A DNA stretch of 57,196 nt, the filler included, from Dugesia japonica (Eukaryota): NCBI GenBank assembly GCA_001938525.1. It is 4 parts of 4 records of this genome, joined end to end, with 100 filler letters (N's around TTAATTAATTAA, not from the genome) between each part and the next. Parts side by side here need not be neighbours in the genome. Positions count along the whole stretch, not along the records: positions 45,730 to 57,196 come from MQRL01628537.1; 3 more parts are not named here. One strand, given 5' to 3'. Below are positions 7,677 to 54,877 of the stretch, in pieces. A program made the position numbers and the translations under genes. The number at the start of each line of letters is the position of its first letter. Positions within the stretch are counted from its first letter, which is position 1. A model generated the notes under the pieces. The model had not been told where the DNA came from and did no database searches. It saw nothing but the letters and a program-made list of their open reading frames with translations.

Positions 7677-7941
7677 TAAATATATATACGCTTTTTTGAA
7701 TATTTAAACAACAATATTATCTTATTGTTACTACAATAAATGCTTATTTTCCTTAATTTTCATGAATTTTTTATAACTAAATAATAAGAAATAATATCAA
7801 ATGATATTCATCATTTAACCAAAGAAAATTAGTTTGACTTTCTTATTTTAATTATTTATTTAATTATTTCATAACTTAAAATGTATTTTTTTAATCTTTT
7901 AAAAAATTCTCATGATGAAATATAACAAAAAGAGTTCTTGC

Positions 7942-15391: not shown

Positions 15392-17520
15392 ACTCTCCTC
15401 TCACAAAACTAAACTAAGCTACTCGATCCTTCTCAGTTTTGTTCCTTCTTGGCCGCTCAATTTGATCTGATGGGGTGATACAAACTTAGTGATTTTGAAA
15501 GGACCATCATATTGGAAATCATTTTTCTTCCGGTTTCGGAGTTCTTTCCTGATCAATACTATGTTTCGGATTTTAAAATTACGTTGACTTCGTTTATCAT
15601 TTTCGAAACTGGCCATTCTTTTTATCAGCAACCTCTAAATTTTTCCTGACGTCCTTTGTAATTTCGGTATCTAGTAGGTTTTGATAATTCTTTCCTGAAT
15701 GTTTGTTTATCTTGTAACCAAATACGATTTCAAAATGCGAGAATTTCGACAAAATTTTTTGAATTGCGTTAATAATAAACTCAACCCTCAGAAGTAACTC
15801 ATGGCAGTTTGTGTGTTCACAACATCCTTTTAAAGAAGTAATGATCATGTCACGAATGGTTCTTATTTCTCTTTTTACCAGATCGTTAGACCAATGTTGG
15901 TATGGAGAACTGAAATTATGTCTGATCATCAAATCTTTCCATCTCTCTTGAAACCACGTGCTCTCAAAATTATTTTTCTCTGTCAGTCAAAATATGTATT
16001 GATCTTCCAAATTTACATATCCAATTTACTGTTCAAAATTATTTTGAAAGTTTATTGACCATCTAACTTAGAAAATGCGTTCAAACTCACCAACTTCCTA
16101 AAACGATCAATGATGGCAACCAAATACTTTTTCTATGAAAGCCACATCTATCACAATCTGTTCATGGAAAAGCGAGCTTCTTTTTGAAATCAATACTTCT
16201 TTTGCACAAATTTGATCTATTTTCTCCTAGTACAAACAATACAAATATGAACAATGATCTTTTAAATAATTGAAAATCTAAATGAATATTTGTTACGGAC
16301 TCTTGTACAAATTTTTATGGTAATAAAATAATATTTTCATCATCTCTTCTTAAAACTAGCAAATCTTTCACTACATTAAGACTGTTTCTCCTGGAAAACA
16401 GAATAGTCTTTTATAAAAGTTCTGACAACTCATCATTTTCTCCTGTTAAAATTCCCTGAACACATTAATAACTGGATCTAAGTTCTGTTCCCAATGTATT
16501 CTCTCCAACTGACCAATATCTTCATGTACCACGTTAATATNNNNNNNNNNNNNNNNNNNTATCACCGTGATTTGTCTGGTACTGCCCATGTGTAATATCA
16601 GAAATCATCGACAACTCAGCAGCATTACCATGCTCATCGCCTTTTTTGTACTTCAACTCAAAGTTGAATTCAGATTATTTCGCTAACCATGTCTGAAATT
16701 GAGAACTTACCGGAATCTTCTAAGTATTCATAAAAACTAAGGCTTTGTGATTTGTGCATTTTCCATAGAGATATTGTTAAAAATTTAAAACAAATTCGTA
16801 TAAGGCTATCAACTCCTTTCTTGTTACANNNNNNNNNNNNNNNNNNNNNNNNNNNNNNNNNNNNNNNNNNNNNNNNNNNNNNNNNNNNNNNNNNNNNNNN
16901 NNNNNNNGACATTAATTTAGTACTCCTCCAATGGTATCAAAACAAGCATGTGTATCAAGCACAAAACTCGACTCTTCCTAGGAATATCTAATATTGGCGC
17001 ATTGTATAATCTTCCTTTATATTTTGAAAACTTTATTGACACCGATCGATCCATTGTAAACCCTATCACTGTCTGAAATGGCAACATATAATGGTGCTGC
17101 AAGTTGTGCATATCCGTAAATAAATCTTCGATAATAATTTGTTAATCACAAGGAAGAACGCAAATAAGAGGTTCTGCTTTTAAAGTTTCTTCAATTTTCT
17201 TTTTATTCGTTCTTACTCCATCGGCACTCACTGTGTGTTGTTGATGAAATTTACATTTCTCCGGCTTTACATTCAAACCAGCACTACTAATACGTTGGAA
17301 AATTTCCTCCAATATATTGCCGTGTTTCTTTTCCCTAGGGCTATAAATCATAATATCATCAAGATAAACCAGTACACCGTTGAAAAGAAGGCCTTCTAAT
17401 AATTCATGCATTAATTTCTGAAATGTTTCTGATGATGTTGCTAATCAAAAAGGCAAACGATTGAAAAGCATATGATTGAAACCACACTGGCCTTTTTTAA
17501 TACTATAAGCTGAAACCAAT
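15392..17520 (-). mobile_element. Degenerate Ty3/Gypsy pol (RT, RNase H, integrase) fragment
   Basis: YLDDIMIYS (17142-17411). Integrase SSPYQHWSN and SHFEIVFG. GPY/F motif YDGPFKI. Purine tract near 15393-15403. Confidence 0.85.
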
Positions 17521-30268: not shown

Positions 30269-30670
30269 AAACATATGTCCAAATGGGTAAATTTCCACAA
30301 ACAATAAAAGGCATTGGTTTCAATGTAGTTTTAGGACCATGTTTGACTCCAACTCTGAAAAACGGTGAATTTTCAATTAACTGCTTAAAATAATCGGCAT
30401 TTTTGCGTCTAAAGTAACTTCCTAATCAATTATAATTGATTTATTGACTTAATTATCGAAACAGAATTCACTTTGCATATGAATAAGTGAGAATGATCCA
30501 ACTTCGAGACCTGATGAGAATATCTTCATAAAAAGGGACTTTCCTGCATTTGATGCCCCATCAAGTAGAATGCAAGTGGTTTTGCCGGATTGTAGCAATA
30601 GTAAAAGACCAATTGCACAAATACGATAATGCAAGGGATTAGTTTCCCCCCGTAAAATTGAGATTGTGTT
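30269..30670 (-). pseudogene. SF3 helicase, parvovirus NS1 / papillomavirus E1-like (endogenous viral element)
   Basis: Walker A GKTTCILLDGASNAGKSLF. Past two stops and a frameshift it continues SEFCFDN*VNKSIIID*E (Walker B), DYFKQL, RVGVKHG (B') and MPFIVCGN (C). Truncated by the contig end. Confidence 0.8.
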
Positions 30671-30820
30671 TTTTAATAAAATTATTAATAATGATAGTAA
30701 ATTGCTTATTAAAATAAAAAGTATTACTACTAACAAAATCTTCAATAAAGTAAGAAAGTTTTTCATAAACTATAAAAGTATTCAAATCCATAAAAATGAT
30801 AAAAAAGACTAAAACTGATT

Positions 30821-31093: not shown

Positions 31094-31588
31094 TTATAGA
31101 TAATTGAATATTACTGGTATTATATATGTTAAAAAATATAAATTATCGTGAAAATAATGAATTTGAAGCCGTCTTTCTAATGCTTCTCGAGTTGATTGCA
31201 ATAAATCGTATGGATATATTAATGAAACATCGTTAACACAGATTATTCGAGGCATACGTTTTGGTATTCTAGCTGTCGAATATTTAATGTCAATCATGCT
31301 TTCATATTCACAATCATATAAGTGAATAAGCTCGGTGACTGGCCATTTACGGAAATCAATGTCATCAATAACAATTCCGTTATTATTCTCAGTAATTAGA
31401 TTGAAACTCTGCCTATTTGTAACTAAACAGGGTTTAGTAAAGTGTGCTAATGCGAAGCTGGTTTTACCGATACCAGATTTGCCAACGAATACATGGGTAA
31501 CATCATCGTATACATCGAAAAAAGGATGTTTAAATTTGTAATGATGTGGAGTAATAATCTCACCATATTCGGATTTTAAATTTTCCAT
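31094..31588 (-). CDS. rep: CRESS-DNA-virus-type Rep, SF3 helicase domain
   Basis: Walker A GKSGIGKT, Walker B GIVIDDIDF, B' IDIKYS, motif C RIICVN and Arg finger ALERRL. Confidence 0.88.
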   Translation of the reverse strand: MENLKSEYGEIITPHHYKFKHPFFDVYDDVTHVFVGKSGIGKTSFALAHFTKPCLVTNRQSFNLITENNNGIVIDDIDFRKWPVTELIHLYDCEYESMIDIKYSTARIPKRMPRIICVNDVSLIYPYDLLQSTREALERRLQIHYFHDNLYFLTYIIPVIFNYL

Positions 31589-31898
31589 TATACATTTTTT
31601 TTAGTTATATAAGTGAACGGATCTCGCTTTTTTAAAAGATTTATTGCTTCATTCAAATTTTCACAATTTAATAAATTATTCCAAATATCTATTTTATTTG
31701 TCTTACATTTGCATGGTATGCCATAATTATTCTGTATGCCACCATGAACTCGAGTATGTTCTTTAGTAACATAATCGAGTATTCTTTGCTTATCATTTTC
31801 ATGTATTGGCGTACAAAAAGGAACCATTAAACGATTTCGAGCTACAGTAAAGTGGATGCTCTCTTTAAACTCGAAATACAACTGCAAATGGCGGTAAC
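31588..31898 (-). CDS. rep: CRESS-type Rep exon 2 (HUH endonuclease motifs II and III)
   Basis: After acceptor tttag (31900-31899): (G)YRHLQLYFEF (motif II) and ILDYVTKE (motif III YxxK). Joins the helicase frame by a -1 shift in an A8 run at 31595-31602. Confidence 0.8.
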
Positions 31899-31942
31899 CT
31901 AAATAATATTTATTTTTTTTATTATTATTAATATAATTTTAC

Positions 31943-32186
31943 CTGATGGAGACATTTCCTCTTGACCGAGAGCATATTGGATGCCGTTTTGTTGGAACAA
32001 TTCACTATATCTTCCAGCATTTGCACTATATTGTTTATACGATAATGATACGTGCCAATTTCTATGACGGCTGTTTGTGGAGCATTTAAATCGGAGATGT
32101 GATTCAACGTCTGGGTACTCATTATTTTTATGAGGTGAACCAGAATCTTCATGTTTTGTATCCAATTCTTTTCTGGGCTCATTCAA
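31943..32186 (-). CDS. rep: CRESS-type Rep exon 1 (motif I region)
   Basis: RHRNWHVSL (position of RNWCFTL motif I) and YALGQEEMSPS-G, then donor G|gtaaaa at 31942. Confidence 0.75.
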
Positions 32187-32360
32187 TAAGAAATATATAA
32201 GAAATTCAATAAGAAATATTTCTAATTGTTTTATTTTTTTAAAATTAAATAAAACTGATAGAGATAGAGTATATCATGATTTATTTTCAAATGTATATTC
32301 AAATAAACTCGATTTTTATTTTATATTTTGTAATCATTGGAAAAATAAACATACATTATT

Positions 32361-33441: not shown

Positions 33442-35784
33442 TGTTGGGGTGAAACACCCGATAATGGTGATAATATCTTCAGGGACTCAAAAGTGGGGTG
33501 CCAAGAGGAGATAAGACTTGGAAAATTAAAAACAAGCAACAATAATTACCAATTCATCAATAATTTGTGGATCAATAATAAGAAGAGGACCCGGGGAAAA
33601 AAATTATAAACGAAAAATATTATAATAAGCCAGAGGTGAATAATTATAATTAAGAAAATTATAATTTAATATCTGAAAATCGGAAGTTGTCATGAAAATA
33701 TAATGTAAAATTAACTAGAAAAATTAATTAATTTATTTTGAAAAAGAGAAATTAATTGATAAAAATCAGTTTAAGAAGAATATCTGTACTCAGAAAAGTC
33801 GGAAGAAGATCAGGAAAGAAAAATCAGAAAGATAAAATCACGATGCAATTGAATTTCACAATGGAAAAGTCATACCACTTTCAAGAAGGTCGGGAAGATG
33901 TTCTGAAGAATAGGCCAATAAGGGGTTTTAAAACAAACAAAAGACATGGAAAACACGAAGTGTCTTAAAAATAGGCACCAATAATGAATTAGAAAATCTT
34001 AGAATATTTTAGAATTTTACAAATGGCTCCATTCAGAAGTGGTTTACCAAAAACAAAAATAACTAACCAACGAGAAAGCAGTCGGGGTGCACGAAGAAAG
34101 GTATAAAAGGTCCCCAAAATTTAGACGGAAAAACAACAATTTTCTAATTAATTGAACTATTGAAACTGTTAATAAAAATTTGGGAAAAGAATCGTGAAAT
34201 CATTTGGAGAAAGATAGAAGTAATAGAACTTATAATATCACCCGGACTAATTTTTATAGGAAAAAGGACAAGGAAAACATTTATTCAGTCTGATTCGGAT
34301 CTATATTTTGCTTTTAAGAAAACCCGTTGCAGAAATTCAACTTCTAATTCTAAATAGTGAGTAGTGTANTTATTTAAGTTATGGTTATCTACTTAATTAT
34401 TTCAAAAACAATAAAATTATTTATGTGTATTTTATGTTTGATTTGAATTATAATTAGAAAACAAAAAATCAACATTGAATAATCTTGAGTTAACCAATTA
34501 CACGCAGTTAGTTTCACTAATAATCCGAGGCTTTTCTGTTAAACATCAATGCAGGATAGCTTTTCCCGAGACATCAATCTAAAATTTTTTTCATTAAGAA
34601 ATTCATCTCGTTAAACCACAGTATGTGTCATGTTAAACGCAGAAACAATTGCTATCCTGAAAATATTTTCTTATGTGGTTTGAAAATATCGATTGATAAT
34701 CGAGTATTATCAGACCACTCAAGTACACATAAGGAGTAGGTGTGTCTGATAGATGCACTGAATTGGATTCTCTGAGTCACATCTGAAATTAGGTTATTAT
34801 TTGACAATTTAATACAAAGTATAATGGAATCTCTATCTGCAGTGTCTTGGTTAATAGTATAGAATGATTTCATTAAAAAATAAAATGCCAACCATGAATA
34901 TTTAATAATGTAGTGATCCCCGGTCAACTGGAATATTTCGGAGAAATTTAGGGCTTTGGATTTTATAGATTATTATTCGTACTATGATCTAACGGATGTA
35001 ATAGAAAAGATGAGTCTTAGTCCAGATATTCAGGCTATCTACATTAACTAATTATTGTTGGGACCATGAGAAGAATCCTCCCCATAAAATGTTGTGATCA
35101 ATTGGTTGATTGTCCAGTTTTGTTTTTGTTGATCAGGATTATTTAACCCCTTTTGTAATTTGATATGATTTTGAAAAATAATATTTGTGTGGACTTAGTT
35201 GATAAATCTTACGAGGAGTACAGACTCATTAGGTTTTTACTACTAAAATTATTATTATTAATTATTGAAATAGGGAATAACTTGGTATTATTGTTATTAT
35301 CTTTTATTATTATTATTTTATGTGTAGGAGAATTTGTTGAGCCCGGAAGTTGGGACAACCGGGTTGTATGTTGTGTTGAACAACGGTGCATCCGTAATAG
35401 AGAAAGTGGCGGTAATGATGATAATACAGAACCGACCACCAATAACGAAAATTAATTATACTTGATGTTCCTCAGTTGTTCTTTTTGTTGATAATAAAAT
35501 TGCATTTGTCCTGAATTGAGTCTTCATTAGTTAATGGATAGGTTCATTTGGATTAGTTAAGTTATCTTCGTTATTTGATATTCAAATTTAAGTCATTCGC
35601 CACTCTCAGTAAACTTAATTTAGATTTTTGCTTTTTATTAACCGACTCATTAATTAAACTAAATGTTAAACCATTTCTTCTCTTTCTAGTGCATTCATTA
35701 CTCAACCGTGTAGTCATATCCACTAAAAAAATACGTGAAACCAGCAAAGACATCGAGATGTTTTGGGAGTTATATAGATTAGCG
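33442..35784 (+). mobile_element. Partial third copy (C) of the LTR-like multi-ORF element
   Basis: Starts TGTTGGGGTGAAAC like copies A and B. Has GTATAAAAGGTCCCC TATA, CCGTTGCA and a GTGAGT donor-like site. ORF-c homolog ctag|(V)HSLLNRVVISTKKIRETSKDIEMFWELYRLA at 35690-35784 is cut by hAT sequence. Confidence 0.75.
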
Positions 35785-37638
35785 TAAATAAAGTGGGAGT
35801 ATTAATTTCTGAACTTGAAGAAATTACAAACGAAAAAGGATCTCGAATCCAGCCCAACTCGGGTTTCTTCAAAATTTTGAATCGTTTAGAAATGTTCTCC
35901 ATTAGCCCTGTGAGATGGTTAATAATCATATTCTTTGTTTCTTGAAATTGATATTATTACTAATAAAAAACTCAGGCATACATAGAAATAATTCAATATT
36001 GTTTTTTTCAATTTCACCTTTCCAAAAAATAAATTTTTAAAAAGCCTCTATTATATCACCAAGAACTAGTATATTTGTTTCTCTTCCTTGTAATCTCAAA
36101 TTCAAATAATTAAAATTTTTAAATATGTCAACAAGATAACAAATATTTAGAATCTATTTTTTGTTTACAAATAATTGAGAAAGATGGGGGATTTTATGTG
36201 ATAAAAACAATCAAACCTCATCTTTGAGATCAAAAAAACATCGAAATATTCTACCACGATAAAGTCATCTTACTTCGTTTTGTAAAAGAAGAGTTTTATA
36301 ACTAGAACCAATCTCGTAGCAAAGTATAGTAAAAATTCTGCTATTTAAGCTTCTACTTTTTAAAAAGTTAATCACATTAGCTGCATCATTTAATACTGAA
36401 CATAGATCTTCCTGCATTTCTTTCGCTATTAATGCTACTCGCTATTAATGTATCATACAATGATTGAAAACTATATCTGGTGCAATTTGTTTTATTATAC
36501 CTTTCAGCCATTTTTTATCTTTGGTTAGTGCAGCTGCACCATCAGTACAAATAGAAACACAATTGGACCATGAAAGTTTATTTTGTTTAAAAAAGTTATC
36601 AAGAAGCTCAAAAATTTTCTCACCATTTGTTCTTTCCATCAGAGCCTTGCAAAATAGGAATTCTTCACAAATATCACCTGCGAAGCAGTATATTACGTAT
36701 AAAATGATTTAAGCAAATTTTAAGATATCTGTAGAATCATTTAATTGTATTGCACAAACTTTACTATCATACAAACGACTAAGCAAAATTGATTTTAAAT
36801 TAATGGCGATACTAGTAATACGCCGTTAAACTGTGTCTTTTTTCCTCCATGTATAATCGACACCATTTTTATTGCAGCACGGAGAACTAGAGATTCTCCA
36901 ATGATGTGTGGCTTTTTATTTTTTCCTATTAGATACGATACTTCCAAAGATGCCTTTAAAGTTTTTTGTGTAACTATTGTATTTTATTTGGCTTTCTATA
37001 TTACTGGCACGTCTTTCATAATAAGATTTATCCTTATTAATTAAGTCCAGATTATTCGATTCTAAATGTCTCTTCATTTTAACTGGCTTCATACTTTCGC
37101 TGGCTAGTTTTTCAGAACATATTACACACAATGGACGTTGCTCATCAACAGTGTAAGTAAATCCATATTTGATATAATTCTCTAGACATTTCCTAGATCT
37201 TTTCGATCCTTTCACATTATAAGATGTTGACACTTCTTTAGACATTTCTGATTGAATCCCCTTTGAAGTATCAGTGTTTAAACTCTCCAACAATATTTTT
37301 CGACCTTTGCCGGGGTTTACAGATTCAGAATCAACATTTTCACTTTCGTTAGTTTTTGAACGANTTGTTCTCACTACCCATTTATCCATAATTAGTGTTT
37401 TTTAATCAAAATAAAGAAAATAATTTACAATAAATGATTATTAATGATTATTATTAAATATTAATGATTAATATAAGATAATTCAGTACAATTTCTATCA
37501 TATTTTTCTGATTCCTAAGTCGGTTAGATGTCCAATGACCAATCTGGTCTGTTTAACGTTAATTAATGTACCATGATAAAGTTAATTTTTTTGCGACCCT
37601 GCAAAACAAGTTAACGACCCATACTTTGCACATCACGG
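35785..37638 (-). mobile_element. hAT Charlie/Buster-type (ZBED5/SCAND3-like) transposon, decayed and 3'-truncated
   Basis: RPLCVICSEKLASESMKPVKMKRHL, ICTDGAAAL, NHCMIH and WIRDPF. 5' terminus CCGTGATGTGCAAAGTATGGGTCG at 37638. Confidence 0.88.
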
Positions 37639-37806
37639 ATCTAATCTAATATCTAATCTAGTACCAGGACCTGTACAATTATGTTTAAACAAATGTATTT
37701 CACCAGTATATTTTTCATATGTAAATGGCTTTACAAATTTAGAATTTTGAAGATCACCTCCATAAGAGTATTTAACTATTTTCTTAGATGCTTTGACCGC
37801 TGACAT
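37639..37806 (-). pseudogene. Parvovirus-type phospholipase A2 N-terminal fragment (Polinton/adintovirus PLA2X-like)
   Basis: MSAVKASKKIVKYSYGGDLQ...GEIHLFKHNCTGPGTRLDIRLD matches the HLPGxNYxGPGTxL Ca-binding loop. Cut by the hAT before the catalytic HD. Confidence 0.7.
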
Positions 37807-39952: not shown

Positions 39953-41231
39953 CAGTGAAACCTCTCTAAGTTAAAAGTCATTGTGTATAAATTATTTTTC
40001 AAGTTACCGAGTTTTTTAACTTAGAGAAAATAAGTCAAAATTTGTGTCATATTTCTTGAAAAGTTATTGTACATTCTAATTTCTAAATTACAATTAACTA
40101 CCGATCCACCGTATTGCATCCAAGATGGTCACACGACGTGTAAAATCACTCACATAAGTGCATGAATCTGCTTCTAAGACCAATTTCTGACGCAAAATTT
40201 GCAATAGAAAATTTTATCTTGGAATTTTGTATTATTCTTTGATCAAGCGGTTGAGCGTCAAAGGTCATATTTGGCGGAAAGAACAGTTGAATATCTTGAT
40301 GGGATGCTACATTGTCAATAACTAGGAGAATGTGTCGCTTTTCTATCTTTATTTTCTTGTCGACGTCTTTCAGCCATTCTGTGAATATTTTGCTTGGTCT
40401 CCACGCTTTTTTGTTATTACGCCAAATGACCAGAAGTTTCTCAACATCTATGCAAGAAAATCTGAATGCACGTGGATATGCTGCGTGGCCGATCATAAGG
40501 GCTTGAGTTTTTCTTCAACAGTAAGAGCAACAAGAAAAGTCGAATAATAATTTATGCTTAATTTGACTTATGTTAATATTACCTGTCATACTTGACTCTA
40601 GAAGGATAGAGATACGATCTTTGGACTGTTTTGTACCTTTTCTGTCTTCACCTCGCTCTGTAATGGATCTATTAGGAGTTGGACGAAAGAATAGAGCCAT
40701 TTATTCGGTATTAAAGAAGTTTTTTTGATCAAATTTATCAATAATTAAGGTGATTATCTTTTTGTGGAACTCTACGGCACCATGTCCAAGTCTTCAGCAT
40801 CACCACATAACGCTCAGAAATCTATGTTGTTCCTCTTACGAAACTTCTTGAGCCACCCATTGCTCCCTTTGGAAATCGGTGATCCCCAGTGCAATGGCCA
40901 TCTTTGAAGCCTTCTCTCTAAACATGGAACCATAGATTGGAATGTTTTTCTTGTGACACATTGTAAAGAAATTTAAAACTTTCGTGTTTAGTTCATTTTT
41001 ATCATTTGCTTGGAGTTTGCGTTTTCTACATGAGTCACAATTGTTTTGCCATAAAGAAGTGATCTCATCACGATTATTCTCGATAACTGTGGCGGTTCCA
41101 TTTGACACTCCAAAGTGTTTTGCGAGGTCTGCTCCTTTGTGCCCTTTGTCAAGGAAATCCAAAATGGATTTCTTTTGATCGATTTTTAGTTCTACTAGTG
41201 ACTTCCGTTGTTTTTTAGTGGATGTGTACAT
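39953..41231 (-). mobile_element. Tigger/pogo DNA transposon remnant
   Basis: TA|CAGTGAAACCTCTCTAAGTT terminus. psq and CENP-B HTH (40836-41231). DDE pieces KQSKDRISILL, LLVIDNVASH and FFPPNMTFDAQPLDQ. Confidence 0.88.
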
Positions 41232-41849
41232 AGCAAAAGTGAAAGCAGATGTGGAGATGAAATATTGATACTCGGTACTAGTCTACAACGGTTTATCAAT
41301 TTATAAAAGTTTTAAACCGCTAGAATTAATTGTAAAAATGCAATCTACAATTTAACAATCTAAAATAAAATTGTAAATTGCTAGATTAAAATAAACAGTT
41401 TATAAAACTATAATTTAAAATTCAAATTATAATAATGATAATTCAATAAATTGCAATAAAATATTATAAGAACAACTAAAATAGCTTACGCAATGCCACA
41501 ATAATTTTTTTACTAGAGTTTTATGGGTATTAGTCTGGTATTCTTGTCTAATATTTATAGTAAAACTGGTTTTGCCTTTTAAATTCAAATTGTAAACATT
41601 AATAATAATAATTAAAATTACCTATTTTGTGTCAATATTATCAGCCTTTAAAATTTAAAAACCTTATTTGGTGTCAATATTATTAATTTTTAAAGTCCAA
41701 CAACCTTTAAAATTCAAATTGCAATTATTGCCAAATTTAATAATCAAAATTACCTATTCTGCGTCCTTGGAAATTGAAATAATAAAACATTTTATTAATT
41801 TTTATAAATTGGTGAAAAAATTTAATTTAATAGACAGACTTGAACACAA

Positions 41850-42600
41850 AACATACGAAAAATCAGATAATTCATCAATTTTTTCATCAAAGTGGAAGTA
41901 TAAACAATCATTCAGAAGGATGATACCAACGTACAATTATCCTATTACAGAAATTGATAGCAATATAGAAGAACTCAAAAATAAACTTTTAGAAACTTAC
42001 AAATATATTAAGAATATCAAATCTAAAAGTAATGAAAACGAAATTATTAAAGAAATAAAGAATTTGAAATCAANNNNNNNNNNNNNNNNNNNNNNNNNNN
42101 NNNNNNNNNNNNNNNNNNNNNNNNNNNNNNNNNNNNNNNNNNNNNNNNNNNNNNNNNNNNNNNNNNNNNNNNNNNNNNNNNNNNNNNNNNNNNNNNNNNN
42201 NNNNNNNNNNNNNNNNNNNNNNNNNNNNNNNNNNNNNNNNNNNNNNNNNNNAATAAAATCGTTATTTTTAGCAGTTAAATGTCACGAACCAGTTCCATCA
42301 TCTATGTACTGTGTTCCTAAAGATCTTAAAACAAAAATAAAAGGAATACCTATTGTCAATGCTTCGAATATTCCATCTACATCATTATGCAAATTTATGG
42401 AAGATTGTTATAGACCATTATTGAATTTTGTTCCAGGACATTTGAAAAATAGTTATGAGTTTGTTGAACGAATTAGAAATTATGACTGGAATAACGATGA
42501 TCAATTTGGTTCATTGGATCAATTCCCATTGAAGTACTGGAAAATGTCATCGATATTGTAAGAGATTTCTTTGAGAGATATAAAGAACATATAGGTATAA
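41850..42600 (+). mobile_element. Penelope-like reverse transcriptase N-terminal fragment
   Basis: PSSMYCVPKDLK...IPIVNASNIPS...LCKF...PLL...HLKNSYEF...FGSLD follows the PLE RT pattern. Confidence 0.75.
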
Positions 42601-43757: not shown

Positions 43758-44169
43758 TTCTTTACAAATTAACAAGACCTATTCAAATACATCGAAACAT
43801 AAAAGAAAAAATTTAAAAAATAAAAAGAAAGGATTAAAAAAATTAATGAAAGAGAAAAGAAAAAGAAGAAAAAGAGAAAAAAATTAAATTTTCCAAAAAA
43901 AAAATAACAAGAAATTAAGGAAAATCTTTTTGGTCAATTCTTTTTGTTTTTAAAACTTGTTAACTGTTTCTCATTTTAATTGTTGATAATTAATATTTGG
44001 GGAAATGTGTAAAATTTTATTATTTTAATTATTTAAAAAATTGCATTTTAGAAAATCCATTATACAAATACAAATGACCACTTATATAGAACATTTTACA
44101 GTGAATTAATTAATTTGTGGTCAAAGTTCATTGATACGTTTACATTTGATCACTGATCATTATTTAACA

Positions 44170-45582
44170 ATGAGCGATGATAAATTACAAAGTTTTTTTA
44201 GACTATTAACTGAGCACGATTTTGATGCGAATAAAACAGTTCCAGATGAATTCAAATGTGGGAAATGTATGAAAATTTTAATTGAAGCTTGTCAAACTCG
44301 CTGTGGTTGTAGATTTAGTAAGACTTGTGTTGATGAAATGATGAATAATGGATGTACATTGTGTCATGGAATCACGGGTAATTGTAAAATTGAATTATTG
44401 TCTAAATTTCAGTTGGATAACAAAACAAATAAACAAATATCGAAACTATTAATGAAATATCCAGTGGAAATGTGCTCATACGAATGTGAATTATTAGAAA
44501 TGAGTGAACATTTAATAATATGTGGAAAGAAAAGCTTAAAATGTCAATTTGATAAGTTGGCCTGTGATATGAAGAAAATGACAAATGAAAAATTGATTGA
44601 AGATTTTCCATTAGATAATTTAATCACATCAAAATATTGATTGACATGATTGATAATATTAAAAATGAAGTTAAAGAATTGAAAGAAAATGAATTGAATG
44701 CAAGTTTAGTATTGAAAGATGAAAAATTAAAATCAATAAATGCAGAAATGCTAAATATGAAAGTAATTTCGATGATTGTTAGTAATTAATTATGAAATTG
44801 TTTATTTAGCTAGAGAAATTGAAGATGGAAAAACCTTTGAATGATAATTGCAAAATTAAAATCAGATAACAAGGAAGAATGTCAATTGATAAAGGTGAAC
44901 ATAAAAAAATTTGATGTAATTTGTAATAAGTATAGGCAGCGAAGATAGAACTTGATGAACAAATGAAAACTCTTGAGTATAAAATCAATGAAATCAATTT
45001 GGAGTTGAAGATACTATGCGAAAATAGTAAAATTGAGTTGATAAAAGTCAATTTTTTGTTGAATTGTTGTAAATATATAGAAATATTTCATGAAGTGTGC
45101 AAAGAAACCACCGATAAGTCATTAATTCAAATGGGGATCGGTCAGAAACTAAATCGACTAGAAAGAAATATTGATAACAAAATGAAAGGAATAATTGAAA
45201 TGATGATCGATAATCCTGATAATATTGGTGATATATTTGGGGTGATTATTTTATCTGGAGTGAATATTTTTATGCTCGACTGCATCCGTATAAATTAAGA
45301 TTGCACATTTATCCGTATGGTGATACATTGGAGATTTGCATATGCAATTATGATGATGTGATAAATCAATATTTGTCGTTTCCATTCACAGCTGATGTAA
45401 CAATAAAAGTCTTTAATAAAAATAAACGAGGGGCGAGCAAAAGTATCAAAAAATCTTGCCGAATAAATAAACCTGAAAATAATTCATACAATGCAAGTGA
45501 TTTATTTATTTATCCATATTCGACATTGAGAAAAAGAGGAAAATTGGAATCAAATTGTTTTATTATTGAATCCTGTGTTTAA
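44170..45582 (+). pseudogene. TRAF: TRAF-family gene (RING, TRAF zinc finger, coiled coil, MATH), disrupted
   Basis: RING-like CGKCMKILIEACQTRCGCRFSKTC. Zinc-finger CSYECELLEMSEHLIIC. Coiled coil. MATH-like HIYPYGD...LSFPFTADVTIKV. Stops and frameshifts, and several Cys are lost. Confidence 0.78.
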
Positions 45583-45887: not shown

Positions 45888-46270
45888 TTAGAGCAAATCC
45901 AGCGCCCCTGGATCTAACCACTGGTTTGGTTCTGTTACCACGAAGTTGAAAACTGCGATGTCGTCATCGTCATCCCATTGTGTTACAGATGGGTTACCTA
46001 TTCGACGGGACAGGTCAGCAATATATTGCTTTAAGAACTCTATTTTCCGCATTAACAGCTGTTTGGTTTCGGTTTCCAAAGCTTTAGTTTGAGCCGCCAG
46101 ATCATTTTGCTTTTTTACAATTAAATCGAATTTTTTAATCAATTGATCCCGTTGATCCAAATGTCTCATAAGGGCCCTGTCTGTTTTACGTTTTAGGTGC
46201 CGTTCAACAAGCAAGCGGCGCATAATTCTATGGCACCTCCGGATGCTATTGGGGAAGTTACTTCGTGGCA
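45888..46270 (-). CDS. Element ORF-d, copy A (orphan basic/coiled-coil protein with acidic tail; terminal exon)
   Basis: Homology to copy B starts at acceptor ttcag|TG CCA CGA. 383 nt in both copies with no indels. AATAAA at 45875-45870. Confidence 0.7.
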
Positions 46271-46397
46271 CTGAATGAAAATCCATTAACAGAGAAACAA
46301 TAACAGTTATTATAATCAATTTTATCAGGTATTCAATGATGTAAAAAACTGAAACTAAGATTAAGATGTACAAATTTTTATTTATAGGAAATAAGAT

Positions 46398-46765
46398 TCA
46401 AACACGTGGATTGGGTTTGGCCTGGGTGGCCTTATCAATCAAGAGGGGGGCTAAAGGAGTCGCTGCTCTCAGCTTCAACACATTTTCCATCAAACTATTC
46501 TCCCGCTCCTGATAAGACTGAATAATCTTGGTGAAAGTTTCAACCTGGGACTTCCACACCCTCTCTTGATTCTCGGTGGCGTCCATCTCTGCTTTGAAAG
46601 CTAAACATTTTCGCTTGTATCGCTTTACTTTAGAGTCAGCCGCGGCGATCTCCGCTTCCCATCGCCTTTTGGCTAATCTATAAAGATCCCATGTGAGATC
46701 GAGATCTTCACTTGTCTCACGTAACTTTTTATGGGGAGCTTGAGACTTGTTTAGAGAAGAATGCA
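46398..46765 (-). CDS. Element ORF-c, copy A (orphan coiled-coil protein; terminal exon)
   Basis: Acceptor tttcag|TG CAT. 368 nt in both A and B. Homolog present in copy C. AATAAA at 46382-46377. Confidence 0.7.
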
Positions 46766-47025
46766 CTGAAAGATAAATAGGTAAAAGATGATACACATTA
46801 TCAGATGTTACTAAGCATTTGGGGTTCCTCAAATGGATAATGAACGAGGGTTCTACGATTAATTTTATTACAAATAGCATCCTGTATTATTATTATGTTA
46901 TTTTCCAAGAAATCTACTAAACGCGATTGCAAATTATTATTATTGGCAGAAATTTATTTACAAGAAGAATTGGAAATGACTACAATTCGAACACCTATTT
47001 ATTATGACAAACAACTACAAAGGAG

Positions 47026-47380
47026 TCATGAAGGATTAGTATTATTGTCGGTGTTGGGGGCAGTATTCTCGACATCAGTTATCCATTCGGCTCTCGGACT
47101 CCTCAGAGGAGATTAGCGATGAACGCTTGTATTGCAGGAGCTGGGGGAAGAGTGGTAGATTGGTAGGTGAAAGCGGTCGCTAGAGTGTGATCCAGCCCCA
47201 TCCATGTCTGATAACGCTGCCGTTCTCCGAAGTCATTAATACGGGCGACGATTGATTCGACCGGTGGTAGGTTTGACCGTCCACCAAGATACCGGCATCC
47301 TAATTATGCGGGTTGTGATATCGACGCAGAGTTATTCAATGAGTTCTCCTATCGACAACACGTATCCATATAGAGTCCAT
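47026..47380 (-). pseudogene. Element ORF-b, copy A (two stops and a frameshift)
   Basis: MDSIWIRVVDRRTH*ITLRRYHNPHN*DAGILV...DFGERQRYQTWMG, homologous to 51225-51578. Confidence 0.75.
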
Positions 47381-47522
47381 ACCTAAGAACAAAATAGGGC
47401 TATAAAAATTTAGATTATGCTGCATTAAGACATAACGGACGAATTATAAAAAATAAGAACTATAATATTTTATTCCATGGTATATTTAAACACCCAGATA
47501 TTCGTAATGCTAAGGGAAGTAA

Positions 47523-47705
47523 TTACTCCGCGTCTGAATCTACCTTCCCCTCCATGGGAAACATCTCGGTAAAACAGCGNAAGTCTGTTTCATCCGGATG
47601 TTCTATCCTACCATGGGTTATAAAGTGAGCTATTAATTGTTTTCTGCGAACCGCTGATCTCTGTCGTGCTATCTTTCGCAGAGCCCTACACAATTCGGCA
47701 GGCAT
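47523..47705 (-). CDS. Element ORF-a, copy A (60-aa basic orphan protein)
   Basis: MPAELCRALRKI...GRIEHPDETD.RCFTEMFP is conserved with 51711-51905. Acceptor tttag 3 nt upstream of the ATG. Confidence 0.65.
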   Translation of the reverse strand: MPAELCRALRKIARQRSAVRRKQLIAHFITHGRIEHPDETDXRCFTEMFPMEGKVDSDAE

Positions 47706-47799
47706 GAGCTAAATATAAGAATAACGTAATTTAATAACATCATTCATGATTTAGTTCCTTAAGAAAAATCCGGATCGGCATTACTTTCAGGTAATGCGG

Positions 47800-48260
47800 G
47801 TGGTATTAATAATAATAATGATAATAATCAGAATATGGATAATAATACTGATACTAAGAATAATATGGAAAATGGTATTAGCAACCCTAGTGGTAATAAT
47901 AACCCTTGCAAATTAATATTAATATAATCATAATCTTAAGAGTTATAGTAACACTCATAAAATAATAATGATGATAATAATAACGATAATAATAATAATA
48001 ATAATAATGATATTAGCGATCACAGCAATAATATTAATAATAATAATGATCGTCATAATGATAATAACCATAATAGTACTAGCCATAGTAGTGAGGTTAA
48101 TGATAATAGTAATAATGTGGACAATAATAATAATAATANNAATAATAATAATAATAGCAATATTAATGATAGAGATAGTAATAATAATAATAATAATAAT
48201 GGTAATATTAATAAACTTAATAATAATAGGATTTGTAGTAAAATTCAGACAAGGATTGAG
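47800..48260. repeat. (ATA)n-derived low-complexity tract inside element copy A
   Basis: Degenerate ATA/ATG triplets. Equivalent tracts occur at 52050-52600 (B) and about 35220-35320 (C). Confidence 0.8.
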
Positions 48261-50196
48261 AGAAATTACTCTCATTAATTACTTAATTTAATATAGTTAT
48301 ACTCCTTTATAACTTGATTTGCCGCAATTATGGGTTACCCAGCAACGCAAAAATAAGTTGATCGGTGATTCCGGCTGAGTAGTTGTGTAGATTAGTGGTG
48401 TGTGGGGTTTGGTGACTCAGCAGAACTTTTATGTGGTTATAAATAAATGTCGAAAAATTGGTTTGGCTTTTTTGTGTTAATAATCATGACGAGAATGTAA
48501 AACGACAATTTCATTGGTGATTATTTTACGTGATAATACGAGGGAATTTTCCCTATCAACGGTAAGAACACGAGATGAATTGTCTACTAAATGTGCATAA
48601 TGCAGAATAAGGCAATTCTATTTAATTTAGCATACGAACTCAACTACCTGAATCTAAAAATAAATTGAATACATATATAATTATGCTATAAAATTAACTA
48701 GAAAAATTAGCAAAATTTAACTCCAAATGTGGATTTATTTATAATGATTTACATACTAAATTTGTAAGAAAAATTTAACAACAACTAAGACAACACATGA
48801 TTACTTTTCTAAATATTTTCGTTTTCTGCAACGGAATAAAATTCGCTAATAGACGTTATTCTTTTATGCGATTACTGGGATTCCGGTTCTTCTTCTTGCT
48901 AAATCAATGGTTTTAGTAGTTTCTAGATTTAGTTGGAAAGCGTCTGCAATTACAATTTCCTCCTTGATTTATAATTAACTGTTTCGATTCACAAAGTTGT
49001 TTATAGTGGTTAATACACCGAAATCGAGATAATAAATTTTTTGTAGTTGGTTTTTTCGCTTAAAAACAGGGGTCCTTTTATACGATTTCTGAGACACCCC
49101 AACTTGTCTGGCATTGGCCAGTTATTTTTAATTTGAATTATTTGAATTTTTTTGGATCTGGTGCCAATCTTCCAAGAATTCTGGAGTTCTGATCGGTAGT
49201 TATTTTTAGACTGGCACATGATATCTGTGTCTTTGTTTTATTTATTTTTCAGGTCTGCCATTGGTCCAAACTTCGAACCNNNNNNNNNNNNNNNNNNNNN
49301 NNNNNNNNNNNNNNNNNNNNNNNNNNNNNNNNNNNNNNNNNNNNNNNNNNNNNNNNNNNNNNNNNNNNNNNNNNNNNNNNNNNNNNNNNNNNNNGTTATG
49401 GGCATAAAATGAATTTTCGTTCCAATTTTAATTAATTTTCGTTTAAAATTAATTGGTATACTTTTGTAATTGTTTCTTCTTTTTTATTAATTATTTTCTT
49501 CATTAATTTATTTAATTTTTGATTATTATAATTANNNNNNNNNNNNNNNNNNNNNNNNNNNNNNNNNNNNNNNNNNNNNNNNNNATTTTGTCAAAGTCAA
49601 ATTCCAATGCCCTGGCAGATACTCTTCTCGGATTTTCTTGAACCCTTTTCGTACACTCAACAGGAGCAAGGTTATGGGCATAAAATGAATTTTCGTTCCA
49701 ATTTTAATTAATTTTCGTTTAAAATTAATTGGTATACTTTTGTAATTGTTTCTTCTTTTTTATTAATTATTTTCTTCATTAATTTATTTAATTTTTGATT
49801 ATTATAATTAATCCTCTTTATTTTAGTCCTCTGAACTTCCAGTTTCATTTNNNNNNNNNNNNNNNNNNNTTTCTTGTTTGATTTTCCATACCCGCTTTTC
49901 TTTTATATGTTTCTTCCTGTAAATTTATTTCTAGTTTGGCATTGAATATTTTACGATCCTCTTTGATTTTATTTATTTATTTATTTTAATTCACTGAGTG
50001 TTTCACCCCAACAAATCACTCCCCGCTTAATTAAAATTCCGTGATAGGTCTTCAGTTTATGGCGGTTGACCCCTCTCTTAATGGGAGGTGCGCACCCATA
50101 AACATTTGTATTTGGGTTCATTTTTCCCTACGATTTTCAGTGAAGAAGGAAAGTACAATATTGATTAGATATCTTTTATTTCATAAACAAAAGAAA

Positions 50197-50579
50197 TTAT
50201 ATTAAATCCAGCGACCCAGGATCCAACCACTGGGTCGTGTCGCTTACGGAAAAGTTGAAGGCGGCGATATCGTCACCATTGTCCCATTGCATTAAAGTTG
50301 GATTGTTTATCTGGTGGGAGAGGTCGGCTATATATTGTTTAAGGAATTCTATCTTTCTTAACAATACTTGTTTGTTCTCCGCCTCGAGTGCTTGGGTTTG
50401 CGATGCTAAATCATTCTGTTTTCTGATGATTAGGTCCAATTTCTTTATGAGTTGATCACGTTGGGCTAAATGTTTGAGAATGGCCCTATCTGTTTTACGT
50501 TTTAAGTGCCTCTCAATAAGTAGGCGACGCATAATGCGGTGGCATCTTCGGATGTTGTTGGGGAAACTAATTCGTGGCA
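50197..50579 (-). CDS. Element ORF-d, copy B
   Basis: tttag|TG CCA CGA. VPRISFPNNIRRCHRIMRRLLIERHLKRKTDRA...QWLDPGSLDLI. AATAAA at 50180-50175. Confidence 0.7.
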
Positions 50580-50705
50580 CTAAATAAAGGAACATTAACA
50601 AAGGAAATAATGAACTTTATCGTTATCGAATTTATTAGAAGATCAATGATATAAAACAGAGACCAAGACTAGGGTATACAAAATTTTATTTACAGGATAG
50701 AATGT

Positions 50706-51073
50706 TTAACCACGAGAGGTGGGTTTCGTCTGGGTGCCCTTATCAATCATAAGAGGCTCCAGGTAGGATTTTGCCTTAAGAAGCAGGATATCTTTGACCA
50801 GTTTATTCTCACGGTCATGGCTGGACCGGATGATTTCGGCGAACGACTCCACCTGCACCTTCCCCACTCTCTCTAGGTCCTGGACAGCTTTCATCTCTTC
50901 TCGGACGTTAGTACACTTGGTTTTATAACGTTTTACTTTAGCGTTGGCTGTGGCTGTCTCCGCTTCCCATCACCTTTTCGCTAGTCTGTAAAGATCCCAT
51001 GTGAGATCGAGATCTTCACTTGTCTCACGTAACTTTTTAAGGGGAGCTTGAGATTTGTTCAGAGAAGAATGCA
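50706..51073 (-). pseudogene. Element ORF-c, copy B (single CGA>TGA stop)
   Basis: ttcag|TG CAT. Same length as copy A. TGA at 50972-50970 where A has CGA. Confidence 0.7.
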
Positions 51074-51224
51074 CTGAATATTATTATGGTTAAATATGAC
51101 AATTACAAGGTCTATTGGATTAACATTAACAAAACGAAAGCTGATCTTGTGCAACGAAAGAAACATAATACAGGAAGACAAAACTTTAAACACCTATTTA
51201 TTTATTTTAAACAACAGACAAAAT

Positions 51225-51578
51225 TTAGGTAGCAGGATTAATATTGTTGATATAAGGGGCCGTATTTTCACTGTCTATGATACCAGACGGTTCCCTAACC
51301 CCCCAAAGAAGGTTAGTTATAAACGCCTGTACTGCAGGAGCTGGAGGTGGAGCGGGTGCTTGGTAGAAGGAGGTCGCAAGAGTGCGATATGGGCCTGTCC
51401 AATTCTGATATCGCTGCCTCTCGCCAAAATCTCTTATCCGAGAGATAATTGACTCTACTGGAGGTAAGTTAGTCCTATCGACTAGGATTCCCGCGTCCCG
51501 ATTGTGGGGATTATGATGCCGGCGGAAAATGATTCGTCGTGTTTTCCTATCTATGACTCTCTCCCATATCGATTCCAT
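51225..51578 (-). CDS. Element ORF-b, copy B (117-aa orphan protein)
   Basis: Intact ATG-to-stop ORF with acceptor tatag 2 nt upstream. Homolog in copy A. AATAAA at 51202-51197. Confidence 0.7.
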   Translation of the reverse strand: MESIWERVIDRKTRRIIFRRHHNPHNRDAGILVDRTNLPPVESIISRIRDFGERQRYQNWTGPYRTLATSFYQAPAPPPAPAVQAFITNLLWGVREPSGIIDSENTAPYINNINPAT

Positions 51579-51710
51579 ATCTATAATTAACAGAAAAGTG
51601 GTTTATAACGTATAACTCTTAAATTACACAATAATAAACACGAGAATAAACAATTAGATTTAATCCGGTTGCACATTTATTTTATAACTAACAATAAGTC
51701 ACAGATTACA

Positions 51711-51905
51711 CTAGGTCGGCGGACTCTCCACATCTAAATCCACGGAAGGCACTATGGGGAACATTTCTACGAAACAGAAAAGATCCGCCTCGTCCGGGTG
51801 TTCCACTTTTCCCTTACTTAGCAGATGGGCGATGAACTGTCTCAAGCGAACAGTTTGCCGACGTCGTTTTATCCCTCTAAGAGTTCGGTACAACTCGGTT
51901 GGCAT
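51711..51905 (-). CDS. Element ORF-a, copy B (64 aa)
   Basis: MPTELYRTLRGI...GKVEHPDEADLFCFVEMFP. Acceptor tttag 3 nt upstream. AATAAA at 51681-51676. Confidence 0.65.
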   Translation of the reverse strand: MPTELYRTLRGIKRRRQTVRLRQFIAHLLSKGKVEHPDEADLFCFVEMFPIVPSVDLDVESPPT

Positions 51906-53379
51906 AGACTAAATGAAAGAGAAAATCAATTTTAGATCCTGATTCCCGTTTCGGAATTAAACAAAAACATTCTCACGACCGGATATTAACAACGGGAGGA
52001 TTAGTCCGGCAACACTATATTACTCTATTGAGGTAATTGTAACTTACACTCGTTGATCGTTATCAAGGGTCCTGATAATATTTTTATTCTTTGACATAAG
52101 AGTATTAACGATATACTCGGCATTTTCCGAACCTATTAATGATAGTAATTGCCAGGAGCATGTTAATAAATATCATGACGCCAGTATGAATTATAATATC
52201 AAGGATGCTGTTACGCATAGTAATCGTAATATTAGCAATAACAGGTTAATAATATCTTTAATAATAATTTGGACAATAATTGTAACAATACCGGTAAAGA
52301 CAATATTAGCAATGGTTGACTAATTTTGAAGTTATTGATAATCAAGGTAACAATTATTATTAATCCTGATGGCAAATGCGATAACGATAATAATCTTAAT
52401 CATAATGATAATCGCAATAGTATAAATAATAAGAATAAGATAATAAAAATACTAATAATAATGATGATATTAATAACAATAATGATAATAATACTATTAA
52501 TAGTGTTGGTAATGATAGAAAGAATAATGATGATAATAATCATAGGCCAAAGTCTTTATGGTATTGATAATATTATCCGAAAAAGAAGTAAGTCCGTTTA
52601 TTTTAGAATAACGTCAATACTGTGAAAAATAAATTTTTAAATCTTCGCCCTACGGTTACCTTGGTTATTCAACAATTTGTATCTGCCAAAGGAAAAACGT
52701 GCGGTGATGATACCTGTGTGTATAGGGTGATGAGTCAACTATCTCTATCGAAAATCCATTTTTAATGTAAAAGTTGTGTGTAGAAAAACGGAGTGTTTGA
52801 AATTTAGTGATTTTATATTTGCAAACGATGACATATTGTAACAAAATTTGTGATCCTAATTCTAGTGAGTGTTCGGGATAGGGTGTGTTCCAACTCTCGT
52901 GGTTTATGTCATAATAGGTCATTCTATTGATCGATGAAAATTTTGGAGAGGAATTTACACTCTTATTCATACATAATTGTTAGAGAAAATTTAAAGAACA
53001 TTAAATGTTTATATTTATTAATTCTAATCATATAAAATACTCACAACAGATAATAATAAACATCTCACTTACTAATAATTCCGGATAAATGCAACGGGAA
53101 TGGTATGGATAATGAAATTTGACTCGATTGCTTTTTCTTCCTGGCTGACAACTGGCACTTTTATTTTCTAGAATCACTTAGTAATTTTGATTAATAAGGT
53201 AATAGTTCAATAACTAGAATATTGGATTTTCTGTTGACTAGACTTTTGTTCCTGTGTTAATAATTTCGCAAAATGTTCGGTAATTCTCTGACAATTATAA
53301 ATGGTAAGAAATTTGTTGTTTAAAATTTTGTTCTTGAAAAAAGTTGTGTTTTTTAAGAGTTTTTCTCTTCTAAATTTTA

Positions 53380-53590
53380 TAAGGCTTATATAGCCTTTTC
53401 TGACGCATCTCGGCATCCTTGCCATTGGCTGCTATTTTAAATTTGAATTTTCTGTTTCCTATTGGTTCTAACGCCAATTTTTTAAGATTTTTCTCGAGTT
53501 TTGGTGCCACGATTGGCAGCTATTTTTAGAGTGACACATGACAATTGTGTCTTTGTTTTATTTATTTTTTCAGGTCTGCCATTGGTTCAA
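53380..53590 (-). promoter_or_regulatory. Putative LTR U3 promoter (several CCAAT boxes and TATA)
   Basis: Four minus-strand CCAAT motifs upstream of TATATAAG (about 53392-53385). Equivalent TATAAAAGG in copy A (about 49082) and copy C (about 34102). Confidence 0.5.
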
Positions 53591-54059
53591 ACTTCAAACC
53601 CCTACAGTGGTTCTCCTGATGAGGTTGGGGTTTTGACGTGCCCAATTTTCAATGCCTTGGCTGAGACCCTTCTCGGATTTTCTTGAGCCCTTTTCGTACA
53701 CTCGACAGGAGCAAAGTTATGGGCAAAAAATGAATTTTAGCCCTAATTTTAATTAATTTTTGTTTAAAATTAATTGATATTCTTTGGTAATTGTTTCTTC
53801 TTTTATTAATTATTTACTTCATTAATTTATTTAATTTTTCCGATTATTATAATAAATACCTTTCATTTTAATCCTCTGAATTTCCAGTTTCATTTAACAG
53901 CGTGCTCCTGATTTTTTTCTTGCTTGATTTTCCATAACCGCTTTTCTTATATATGTTTCTTTCCGTAATTTTATTTCTTGTTTGGTATTGAATGATTTAC
54001 GGTCCCCTTTGATTTTGTTTTCCATTTCACTGGGAGTTTCACCCCAACAATATTATCAA

Positions 54060-54877
54060 TTTTGATATTAAATCTTACTTTGCACTTTATAAGCTTTTAT
54101 CTAAGCACTCATAATTAGTGATTAGTTCCTATATAGATATTTAAGTAATATGATTCATTTTATAGTTTTTAATATTATTAGTATCGTATTATTATTGCTT
54201 GGAACTTTGGTAGTTATTTATATAATTATAATTGAATCTTGTTATTTCTCTTTGACTCATCAATGTAACGTTCATACCCCTGAAGCCACGATACTCCAAA
54301 GAAATTTTGTTTCGAAAGATGGATACCATATAGTTCCGCTGAATTCGAGAATGATGGATAGTGATGCAGGAGAATGCATCGCAAAAATTCTTGCAGCTAC
54401 TAGGTTTCATCCCCCAGACGTAAATTTCAATCAGAAAGATGAAAAATCGATTAGTAGAGAAGAAAAGAAAATACATCAAAAGCCTAGAAGCCCAACAATA
54501 AACACCCACAAAACGACAATTTCAAGTGGGAGATCAAGTATTTAAAAAAAGACAATGAACGATACTGAAGTCCATAGAAGATCGCGGAGAAGATACCTTA
54601 TGCGAAGAACAAATGGTAAAGCTGGAAATGAACGTTGAAAAGCTTTAAAAAAATCGAGGTGGATGTAATGATTAAAAATAACAATTAAAAGTTTAAAGAA
54701 AATTTCAGAAAACATTTAAAGAATTTAAATGTTTAGAAACGTTGTTTAAATATTCAGATTTTAAAAAAAGATTTACAAACAAATCAGTGTCAAATTGAAA
54801 TAAATCTGCCTCAGAATTAGTAATCAAATATTTTTAAAATATTGATTTTAATTTTACAAAAATATTTTCATTTTACA
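54060..54877 (+). mobile_element. Ty3/Gypsy integrase remnant, PPT and probable 3' LTR
   Basis: HQCN and FQVGDQV integrase remnants. Purine tract GAGGTGGA followed by TGTAA at 54664. TTACA candidate ends at 54858 and 54877. Confidence 0.55.

Follow-up and report, generated by a model that had tools for sequence, protein, structure and literature searches.

Four selected orphan genes and a predicted shared leader in an LTR-like repeated unit of the planarian Dugesia japonica

Short open reading frames (ORFs) that stand in a row, each behind a splice acceptor and each closed by a stop codon and a poly(A) signal, raise the question of how they are expressed, particularly where an ORF opens without an ATG. 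Such a cassette is found on the minus strand of a 57,196-nt stretch of the planarian Dugesia japonica genome (assembly GCA_001938525.1; hereafter the window), once as copy B (51910-50197) and once as copy A (47710-45888), the two being 68-72% alike. The initial annotation described four modules of acceptor, ORF, stop and AATAAA (ORFs a to d) and explained them by one promoter, a shared leader and alternative terminal exons. The four modules are confirmed in both diverged copies, all eight acceptor AGs lie on the minus strand exactly where they had been placed, and the explanation is still the best model, although its junctions are predicted ones. Two elements absent from that annotation are added here: a start codon split by the splice junction as A/TG (the slash marks the junction), as the reason for the missing ATGs, and a mobile unit resembling a long terminal repeat (LTR) element around the cassette. 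Taken as a whole, the model of an LTR-like mobile unit free of gag and pol, with alternative terminal exons in the style of the adenovirus late unit, is given a probability slightly above one half (about 0.52), its splicing being predicted from sequence.

Four separate genes under selection

ORFs a-d are almost certainly real, selected and modular genes. Between B and A the pN/pS ratio across 392 codon pairs is 0.23, with pS at 0.75 (saturated) and pN at 0.175, and the differences at codon positions 1, 2 and 3 number 98, 63 and 198. Single ORFs have ratios of 0.07-0.35 with bootstrap upper bounds of 0.50 or less; these rates skip codons with stops or N, and ORF b is represented by 86 of its approximately 117 codons, in three gap-free pieces. 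The codon rates had been proposed as a check on the annotation, and the ratio is well below 1. Six of the eight ORFs are open frames, but B-c and A-b are broken. The lesions of copy A are only in b and the one stop of copy B is in c; since no copy has more than one damaged ORF, the ORFs appear to be separate genes and not exons of one protein. Their GC content is 43-51%; for five further coding stretches in the window it is 28-36%. Between B and A, 111 of 120 nt are identical in the 5' part of ORF c, while silent sites are saturated elsewhere. Within this part, B 50989-51039 and its A counterpart share 51 identical bases, for which either gene conversion or an overlapping RNA or DNA signal may be responsible.

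All eight ORF acceptors pass a filter of YAG, at least 10 pyrimidines in 18 nt and no AG in 15 nt, which is passed by 13% of 2518 minus-strand AGs. AATAAA, previously placed about 10-50 nt past each stop, is present in eight of eight cases at a measured 12-48 nt (29, 18, 15 and 16 nt for a-d of B; 48, 22, 15 and 12 nt for a-d of A). The same hexamer is found in 14-16% of 10501 56-nt intervals per strand, in 3-13% of spacer shuffles and in one of eight antisense controls, and the chance of its standing at four independent positions is 3e-5; it also occurs inside B-c (50807) and within the leader and intron. From AATAAA to the next acceptor the distances are 100, 132, 110, 91, 237 and 111 nt, in agreement with the spacing and the one long spacer reported. 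Similarity between the copies had been said to begin at the AG of each ORF; in 10-nt bins this is clear for b and c and weak for d, but is not seen for a. ORFs b, c and d open in phase 1, as annotated, and a opens in phase 0.

The four proteins were not recognized in the initial annotation, and b, c and d have no homologue in any of the collections searched. ORFs a-d have no significant Pfam match, and PDB sequences gave no relative, ORF a having been compared only with Pfam, PHROGs and PDB. No relative of b, c or d was found in a 5.8-billion set (near lengths only), none of b or d in an atlas search, and none in metagenomes or prokaryote genomes for the ORFs searched. Five scans of viral contigs gave no locus; two of them counted 1 and 3 candidate stretches, with 0 loci returned. 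A profile of d compared with 1.84 billion sequences matched 33 columns of one repeat-rich 2917-aa protein, which was dismissed as chance, and weak PHROGs matches to the helical stretch of c (E 2e-4 at best) were judged to be coiled-coil noise. Protein d has a basic region, a heptad helix and an acidic-aromatic tail, with charges of +12 in the N half and -6 in the C half, and a has the same polarity (Arg-rich N half +8, acidic C half -7). AlphaFold models d as a single helix of 83 residues bearing a heptad repeat, for which Foldseek returned no match at E <=0.001, while the model of b (pLDDT 39.5) is unusable. A bZIP protein requires an N-x7-R/K basic motif at a fixed distance from the zipper; d has the heptads and the helix, but the motif is absent by eye and Pfam finds no bZIP, and the assignment was rejected. 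As a guess from composition, the proteins are likely to be accessory regulators (a and d by their polarity, c by its long helix).

The repeated unit, its leader and the split start codon

The cassette forms the 3' half of a unit of 4.0-4.3 kb (Table 1). The same 14-nt start, which begins with TG, is found in three of three copies, at 54049 (-), 50013 (-) and, for a third copy (C), 33442 (+), in three different flanks; 0.19 matches would be expected at two mismatches. It is followed by an AT-rich stretch, repeated CCAAT boxes (a repeat family) and a TATA box. About 390 nt of the head recur after B at 87%, the remainder being in N gaps or part of copy A, and the polypurine tract looked for before a 3' head is present at 50028-50019, in one copy only; its GGGGAG core occurs six times in the window. 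The simplest reading of this layout would be head, inner part, purine tract and head. With 87% identity, against saturated silent sites between A and B, the two heads of B are a far closer pair. Copy A is joined to the B unit across a 115-N gap, either genuinely or through scaffolding, and no copy has both flanks visible. No longer inverted repeat was seen at the head ends, and the 3.07-kb inner part has neither room nor an ORF for gag or pol. Because no primer-binding site was found and gag-pol is absent, the unit is not classified as an LTR retrotransposon; a carrier of LTR type is nonetheless probable.

Past the TATA box, the ATG-free lengths of the leaders of B, A and C are 345, 316 and 358 nt, and these runs rank 3 (B) and 6 (A) of 972 minus-strand intervals and 4 of 886 (C). 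The leader sequences are 63-67% alike among the three copies, compared with 60-68% for shuffles. All three contain a GC-rich 8-mer ending in CA that is found nowhere else in the window (0 of 2000 shuffles), and a GT preceded by A stands 17, 22 and 25 nt beyond it in the three copies. The B site, the candidate donor GTAAGT at 53072 already proposed, ranks first of the 20 GTs in its region, and the C site is top-scoring among 19 GTs. Beyond the donor, similarity between the B and A introns is limited to the ATT/AAT tract, and no exon is common to both.

The ATG of ORF a is 3 nt past the AG and that of ORF b is 2 nt past it. ORFs c and d instead open with AG/TG, the TG completing a codon, in five of five cases (B, A and C), while 3.6% of acceptor-like AGs have TG next. 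A leader ending in A, spliced to AG/TG, would form an A/TG start for c and d, and such a leader would account at once for the phase 1 in common, for the absence of an ATG from c and d and for its absence from the leader itself. A splice-assembled start has been described for gypsy env, as AT/G (PMC2585583; bioRxiv 2023.08.03.551782). The split-start model is strongest for c, whose most conserved part precedes the first shared Met by about 60 codons, and in B and C no in-frame ATG lies upstream of it. The earlier statement that c and d lack an ATG at the start of the conserved region needs qualifying: c has none upstream in B and C but one in frame 39 codons up in A, and d has one in frame 6 codons upstream of its first full codon in both copies. 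The model appears weaker for d than for c, although the four codons between the upstream ATG and the AG are without conservation. That the ORFs share one leader in cis, with start codons split by the junction, is considered quite likely.

If so, one promoter would express four genes, with an ATG-free leader joined to four alternative last exons, each of which would finish at its own poly(A) signal. ORFs a and b would bring their own AUG 2-3 nt inside the exon, and each mRNA would start translation at the junction. The definition of a terminal exon requires use of its acceptor. Unspliced RNA would leave the terminal exons undefined and skip the internal poly(A) sites, and the full-length product would be copied by a helper retroelement. 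Both kinds of RNA have precedents: MDG1 elements have short internally polyadenylated RNA plus full-length RNA (bioRxiv 2025.03.14.642691), and adenovirus fiber RNA passes seven poly(A) sites (PMC9499273).

Copy C carries ORF x, for which neither a resemblance to a or b nor a PHROG family was detected, and a and b are not detectable in this copy, so that the cargo looks modular. Of the two exons annotated in copy C, 35690 is an ORF c homologue (tblastn E 1.5e-9), but 35328 sits inside ORF x and is probably an AG in the middle of an unrelated ORF. The insert that cuts this copy is presumably of hAT type, by its motifs and with weak Pfam support. On the opposite strand, 1.2 kb from C, is a split rolling-circle Rep-like ORF with a P-loop (31094-32273, -; 31% GC), which has a weak Pfam match to Gemini_AL1_M (E 0.054). 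An SF3-helicase-like fragment at 30300-30770 (-), with a weak match to PPV_E1_C (E 0.01), recalls by description only the planarian PIVE/PEVE elements (PMC3198968).

Four of 24 public runs (X1, X2, X3 and X6) were compared, with copy B only. Run X1, a contig set that is probably DNA (5% of words), has 1241 contigs on unit B, of which 43, 109, 408 and 681 fall in the identity bands 99% and above, 95-99%, 90-95% and below 90%. They cover 28 of 30 bins, with coverage lowest over the intron and over the 3' half of b, and up to 12 contigs stand at a single ORF c site, which suggests a family with many variants. The three raw runs placed 147, 986 and 245 reads on copy B, mostly on the ATT tract, and 0, 3 and 0 of these were at least 95% alike; lacking this copy, they are uninformative on splicing.

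Several smaller features touch the unit. In the possible stem-loop of the tail, one pair is altered on both sides and three on one side (two sequences only), and the wider region has a z of -0.18. A hammerhead ribozyme in the terminal repeat, as in Penelope-like elements, Terminons and retrozymes, was rejected: Rfam has no match in 29000-57196 except three chance ones (E 1-4), and words resembling the hammerhead core at the B-A junction are non-canonical and not kept in A. An ATT/AAT-rich tract precedes the first acceptor in three copies (in B as listed in Table 1, 47807-48228 in A and approximately 35230-35320 in C). These tracts are Ile/Leu-rich in sense and Asn-rich in antisense, with broken frames. 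One Asn-rich ORF on the antisense strand of the intron was discarded, as its frames are broken and it has no shared sequence. The 101-codon ORF of the B intron has AATAAA at 52602 and no PHROG match and is missing from A; it is possibly a fifth, lineage-specific module. An exact 140-nt duplicate (49395-49534 and 49671-49810) flanks the N gap in the second head and is probably an assembly artefact. Immediately outside the B start is a 139-codon ORF (54126-54545, +) with no Pfam match.

Table 1. Features of copies B, A and C in the window; splice sites, starts and boundaries named as predicted, candidate or -like are readings of the sequence.
Feature	Position	Strand	Details
B head, LTR-like, 960 nt	53090-54049	-	TG start, CCAAT boxes, TATA 53392, 8-mer ending CA; right end inferred
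B predicted shared non-coding leader, ending in A	53073-53392	-	ATG-free run 53408-53063
B candidate donor A/GTAAGT	53067-53072	-	6/6 to consensus, 17 nt past 8-mer
B predicted first intron, lineage-specific	51911-53066	-	ATT/AAT tract 52387-52540, 101-codon ORF 52668-52970
B ORF a, 64 aa	51711-51910	-	acceptor 51910-51909, ATG 51905, AATAAA 51681
B ORF b, 117 aa	51225-51582	-	acceptor 51582-51581, ATG 51578, AATAAA 51206
B ORF c	50706-51075	-	AG/TG acceptor, single in-frame stop 50972, AATAAA 50690
B ORF d, 126 codons	50197-50581	-	AG/TG acceptor, AATAAA 50180
Possible stem-loop, tail common to B and A	50055-50103	-	16 pairs, weak
Polypurine-tract-like tract, 9/10 purines	50019-50028	-	5 nt before repeated head
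Second head after B, 3'-LTR-like, interrupted by N gaps	49395-50013	-	86.5% over 133 columns and 87.3% over 259 columns vs B head
A promoter, ATG-free leader	48805-49279	-	TATA 49082, 8-mer 48834-48827, ATG-free 49114-48798
A donor, uncertain	48804	-	A/GTAATC, 4/6 to consensus
A ORF a, 60 aa	47523-47710	-	ATG 47705, AATAAA 47474
A ORF b, broken	47026-47384	-	three stops, at least two frameshifts, AATAAA 47003
A ORF c, 121 codons beyond AG/TG	46398-46767	-	AATAAA 46382
A ORF d, 126 codons	45888-46272	-	AG/TG acceptor, AATAAA 45875
C head, same 14-nt start	33442-34362	+	TATA 34102, ATG-free leader, 8-mer 34324-34331, candidate donor A/GTGAGT 34357
C ORF x, 96 aa, hydrophobic middle	35165-35455	+	acceptor-like AG about 29 nt ahead of ATG, AATAAA 37 nt past stop
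C ORF c start, AG/TG	35688-35800	+	broken after 31 codons, cut by DNA-transposon-like insert

Evidence against the model and rival explanations

A number of observations weigh against the model. No junction or poly(A) read was found in the runs compared, and none of the nine joints listed connects an ORF with the leader. In A the donor is weak (4 of 6 to consensus) and is outside the five best GTs of that copy, and an A before GT is frequent in AT-rich DNA. For d, the in-frame ATG upstream of the AG is conserved in both copies and is a rival start. The right end of the head has the 8-mer as its sole basis, and in A and C, where it runs into CAG, the 8-mer could instead be an acceptor. Neither a TGG primer-binding site nor any conserved sequence follows the 8-mer, the presumed LTR end, in three of three copies, and self-priming is no better than in shuffles (473, 59 and 359 of 500). 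The N gaps in the 3' head copy hide its end, any target-site duplication and the B-A join. The heads of B are 13% apart, yet its ORFs have one stop, where three would be expected at 6% per copy (P 0.17). Full-length RNA would be obstructed by four poly(A) signals and several AATAAA in the head. As for the X1 contigs, part of them lie on the ATT tract or AT-rich head and are perhaps outside the family, and the run is perhaps from another strain or species.

The same expression from leader to exon would be expected if the unit belonged to an integrated DNA virus or to a giant element, as a fragment of it. The architecture is like that of the adenovirus late unit (PMC9499273), the GC content of the ORFs differs from that of other window genes, no primer-binding site was found, and the weakly matching fragments that resemble Rep and an SF3 helicase are found 1.2-3 kb from C. 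However, the purine tract is followed by a direct copy of the head with its TG start, the unit has no viral hallmark gene, no locus came from viral contigs in the five scans, and the Rep-like ORF, at 31% GC, occupies the opposite strand and is absent beside A and B; such an origin is therefore regarded as unlikely. Distinctly less probable is an operon, in which a long RNA would be cut at each poly(A) site and a spliced leader trans-spliced onto each AG. The distance from AATAAA to AG, 91-132 nt in five of six spacers, does resemble that of flatworm operons, with a median of 99 bp in S. mansoni (PMC12582326) and a peak near 100 bp in M. lignano (PMC8629364), but flatworm spliced leaders end in ATG (PMC12582326). 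As initially noted, such a leader would be in frame only for a, where phase 0 is open for 65 and 61 codons; in b, c and d the phase-0 reading is only 9 and 16, 4 and 4, and 25 and 25 codons. Because it is so short in c, an AUG-ending leader leaves the best-conserved part of c startless. A G-ending leader of another phylum would yield only GUG, and a donor-like site sits 3' of the leader in cis.

Rated lower again is a tandem family of host or domesticated genes that use alternative last exons and are still under selection in place. Such a family would suit the adjacency of A and B and the three of four ORFs that B retains intact despite the divergence of its heads, but not a start that is identical across three unrelated flanks and in either orientation, the lesions in every copy, the different cargo of C or the many variant contigs. 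The least probable explanation is that the ORFs are exons joined to a shared upstream phase-1 coding exon, or are consecutive exons of one gene. The phase 1 common to b, c and d would be consistent with it; a stop and AATAAA nevertheless close each ORF, a is in phase 0, the leader is without ATG in three of three copies, A-b is decayed while A-c and A-d are open, and the intron holds no exon common to B and A.

Non-autonomous elements are usually non-coding passengers. Here four proteins have been strongly selected across lineages with saturated silent sites, which implies that they were of use to the element or to its helper. Tentatively, the units may be small helper-dependent retroelements, or satellites of giant flatworm retroviruses, with swappable accessory genes and a miniature adenovirus-like late unit. 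The last base of the leader would then complete the AUG, so that only correctly spliced RNA would be translated and unspliced RNA would be the genome. If the leader model is true, a split start codon, internal poly(A) sites and shared-leader alternative exons, each familiar from separate systems, are combined in 4 kb, and splicing is both a translation switch and a poly(A) switch, which is directly testable. A further gain is a set of four new orphan protein families whose expression map is clear.

Surrounding sequence and comparison with known systems

The window has a GC content of 18-41% per 2-kb bin, with CpG close to expectation, and is crowded with transposon fragments around an ELAV-like RRM gene, represented by two exons with ordinary GT-AG sites (7903-8237 and 9742-9897, -), and a TRAF-like gene. 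Decayed elements lie at 5173-7703, 13874-14917, 15597-17444, 35830-37640, 40146-41282 and 41659-42561 and include reverse transcriptase (RT) fragments (RVT_1 E 3e-15) and mariner (HTH_48 E 1e-14); the hAT-, pogo- and RT-like pieces among them are presumed to be such by their motifs only. A 432-nt tandem duplicate, 98% identical, is found at 12579-13492. The TRAF-like gene (44110-45582, +) lies past the gap after copy A and has a MATH domain (E 4e-7) broken by stops. Burro elements also carry a MATH_TRAF domain (PMC6431247).

No description of the element or of its combination of features was found in the literature, although a planarian repeat library or Repbase may hold it unnamed. Burro and planarian non-autonomous LTR elements resemble it in AT-rich host type, accessory ORFs and tandem-repeat tracts (PMC6431247; PMC11963269); compared by description only, Burro differs in being >30 kb with a polyprotein (PMC6431247), and the extra ORFs of Retand differ in being antisense (PMC11963269). 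The operons of flatworms and nematodes share the distance of about 100 nt from poly(A) signal to next acceptor, but the frames of b, c and d are unfit for an AUG-ending leader (PMC12582326; PMC8629364). In the MDG1 group (412, mdg1, Stalker and blood), small accessory ORFs are also selected and poly(A) follows sORF1 (bioRxiv 2025.03.14.642691); these elements are reported as unspliced, with two sORFs ahead of gag-pol, whereas four acceptor-led modules stand here with no gag-pol. The env mRNA of gypsy and the springer subclade has an LTR-promoted leader joined to a downstream ORF and a junction-built start, as predicted for the cassette (PMC2585583; bioRxiv 2023.08.03.551782). Gypsy env has AT/G, one target ORF (env) and gag-pol; unlike it, the cassette has a predicted A/TG in two of four orphan ORFs, an AATAAA for each and no gag-pol. 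The adenovirus major late unit has one promoter, a shared non-coding leader and alternative acceptors and poly(A) sites, as predicted for the cassette (PMC9499273). No sequence similarity to it was found; the signals of a late unit of this type are present here, and their use is predicted from sequence only. Adenovirus is a DNA virus with five poly(A) families and several acceptors in each (PMC9499273), while the planarian unit has one acceptor per poly(A) site within an integrated 4 kb.

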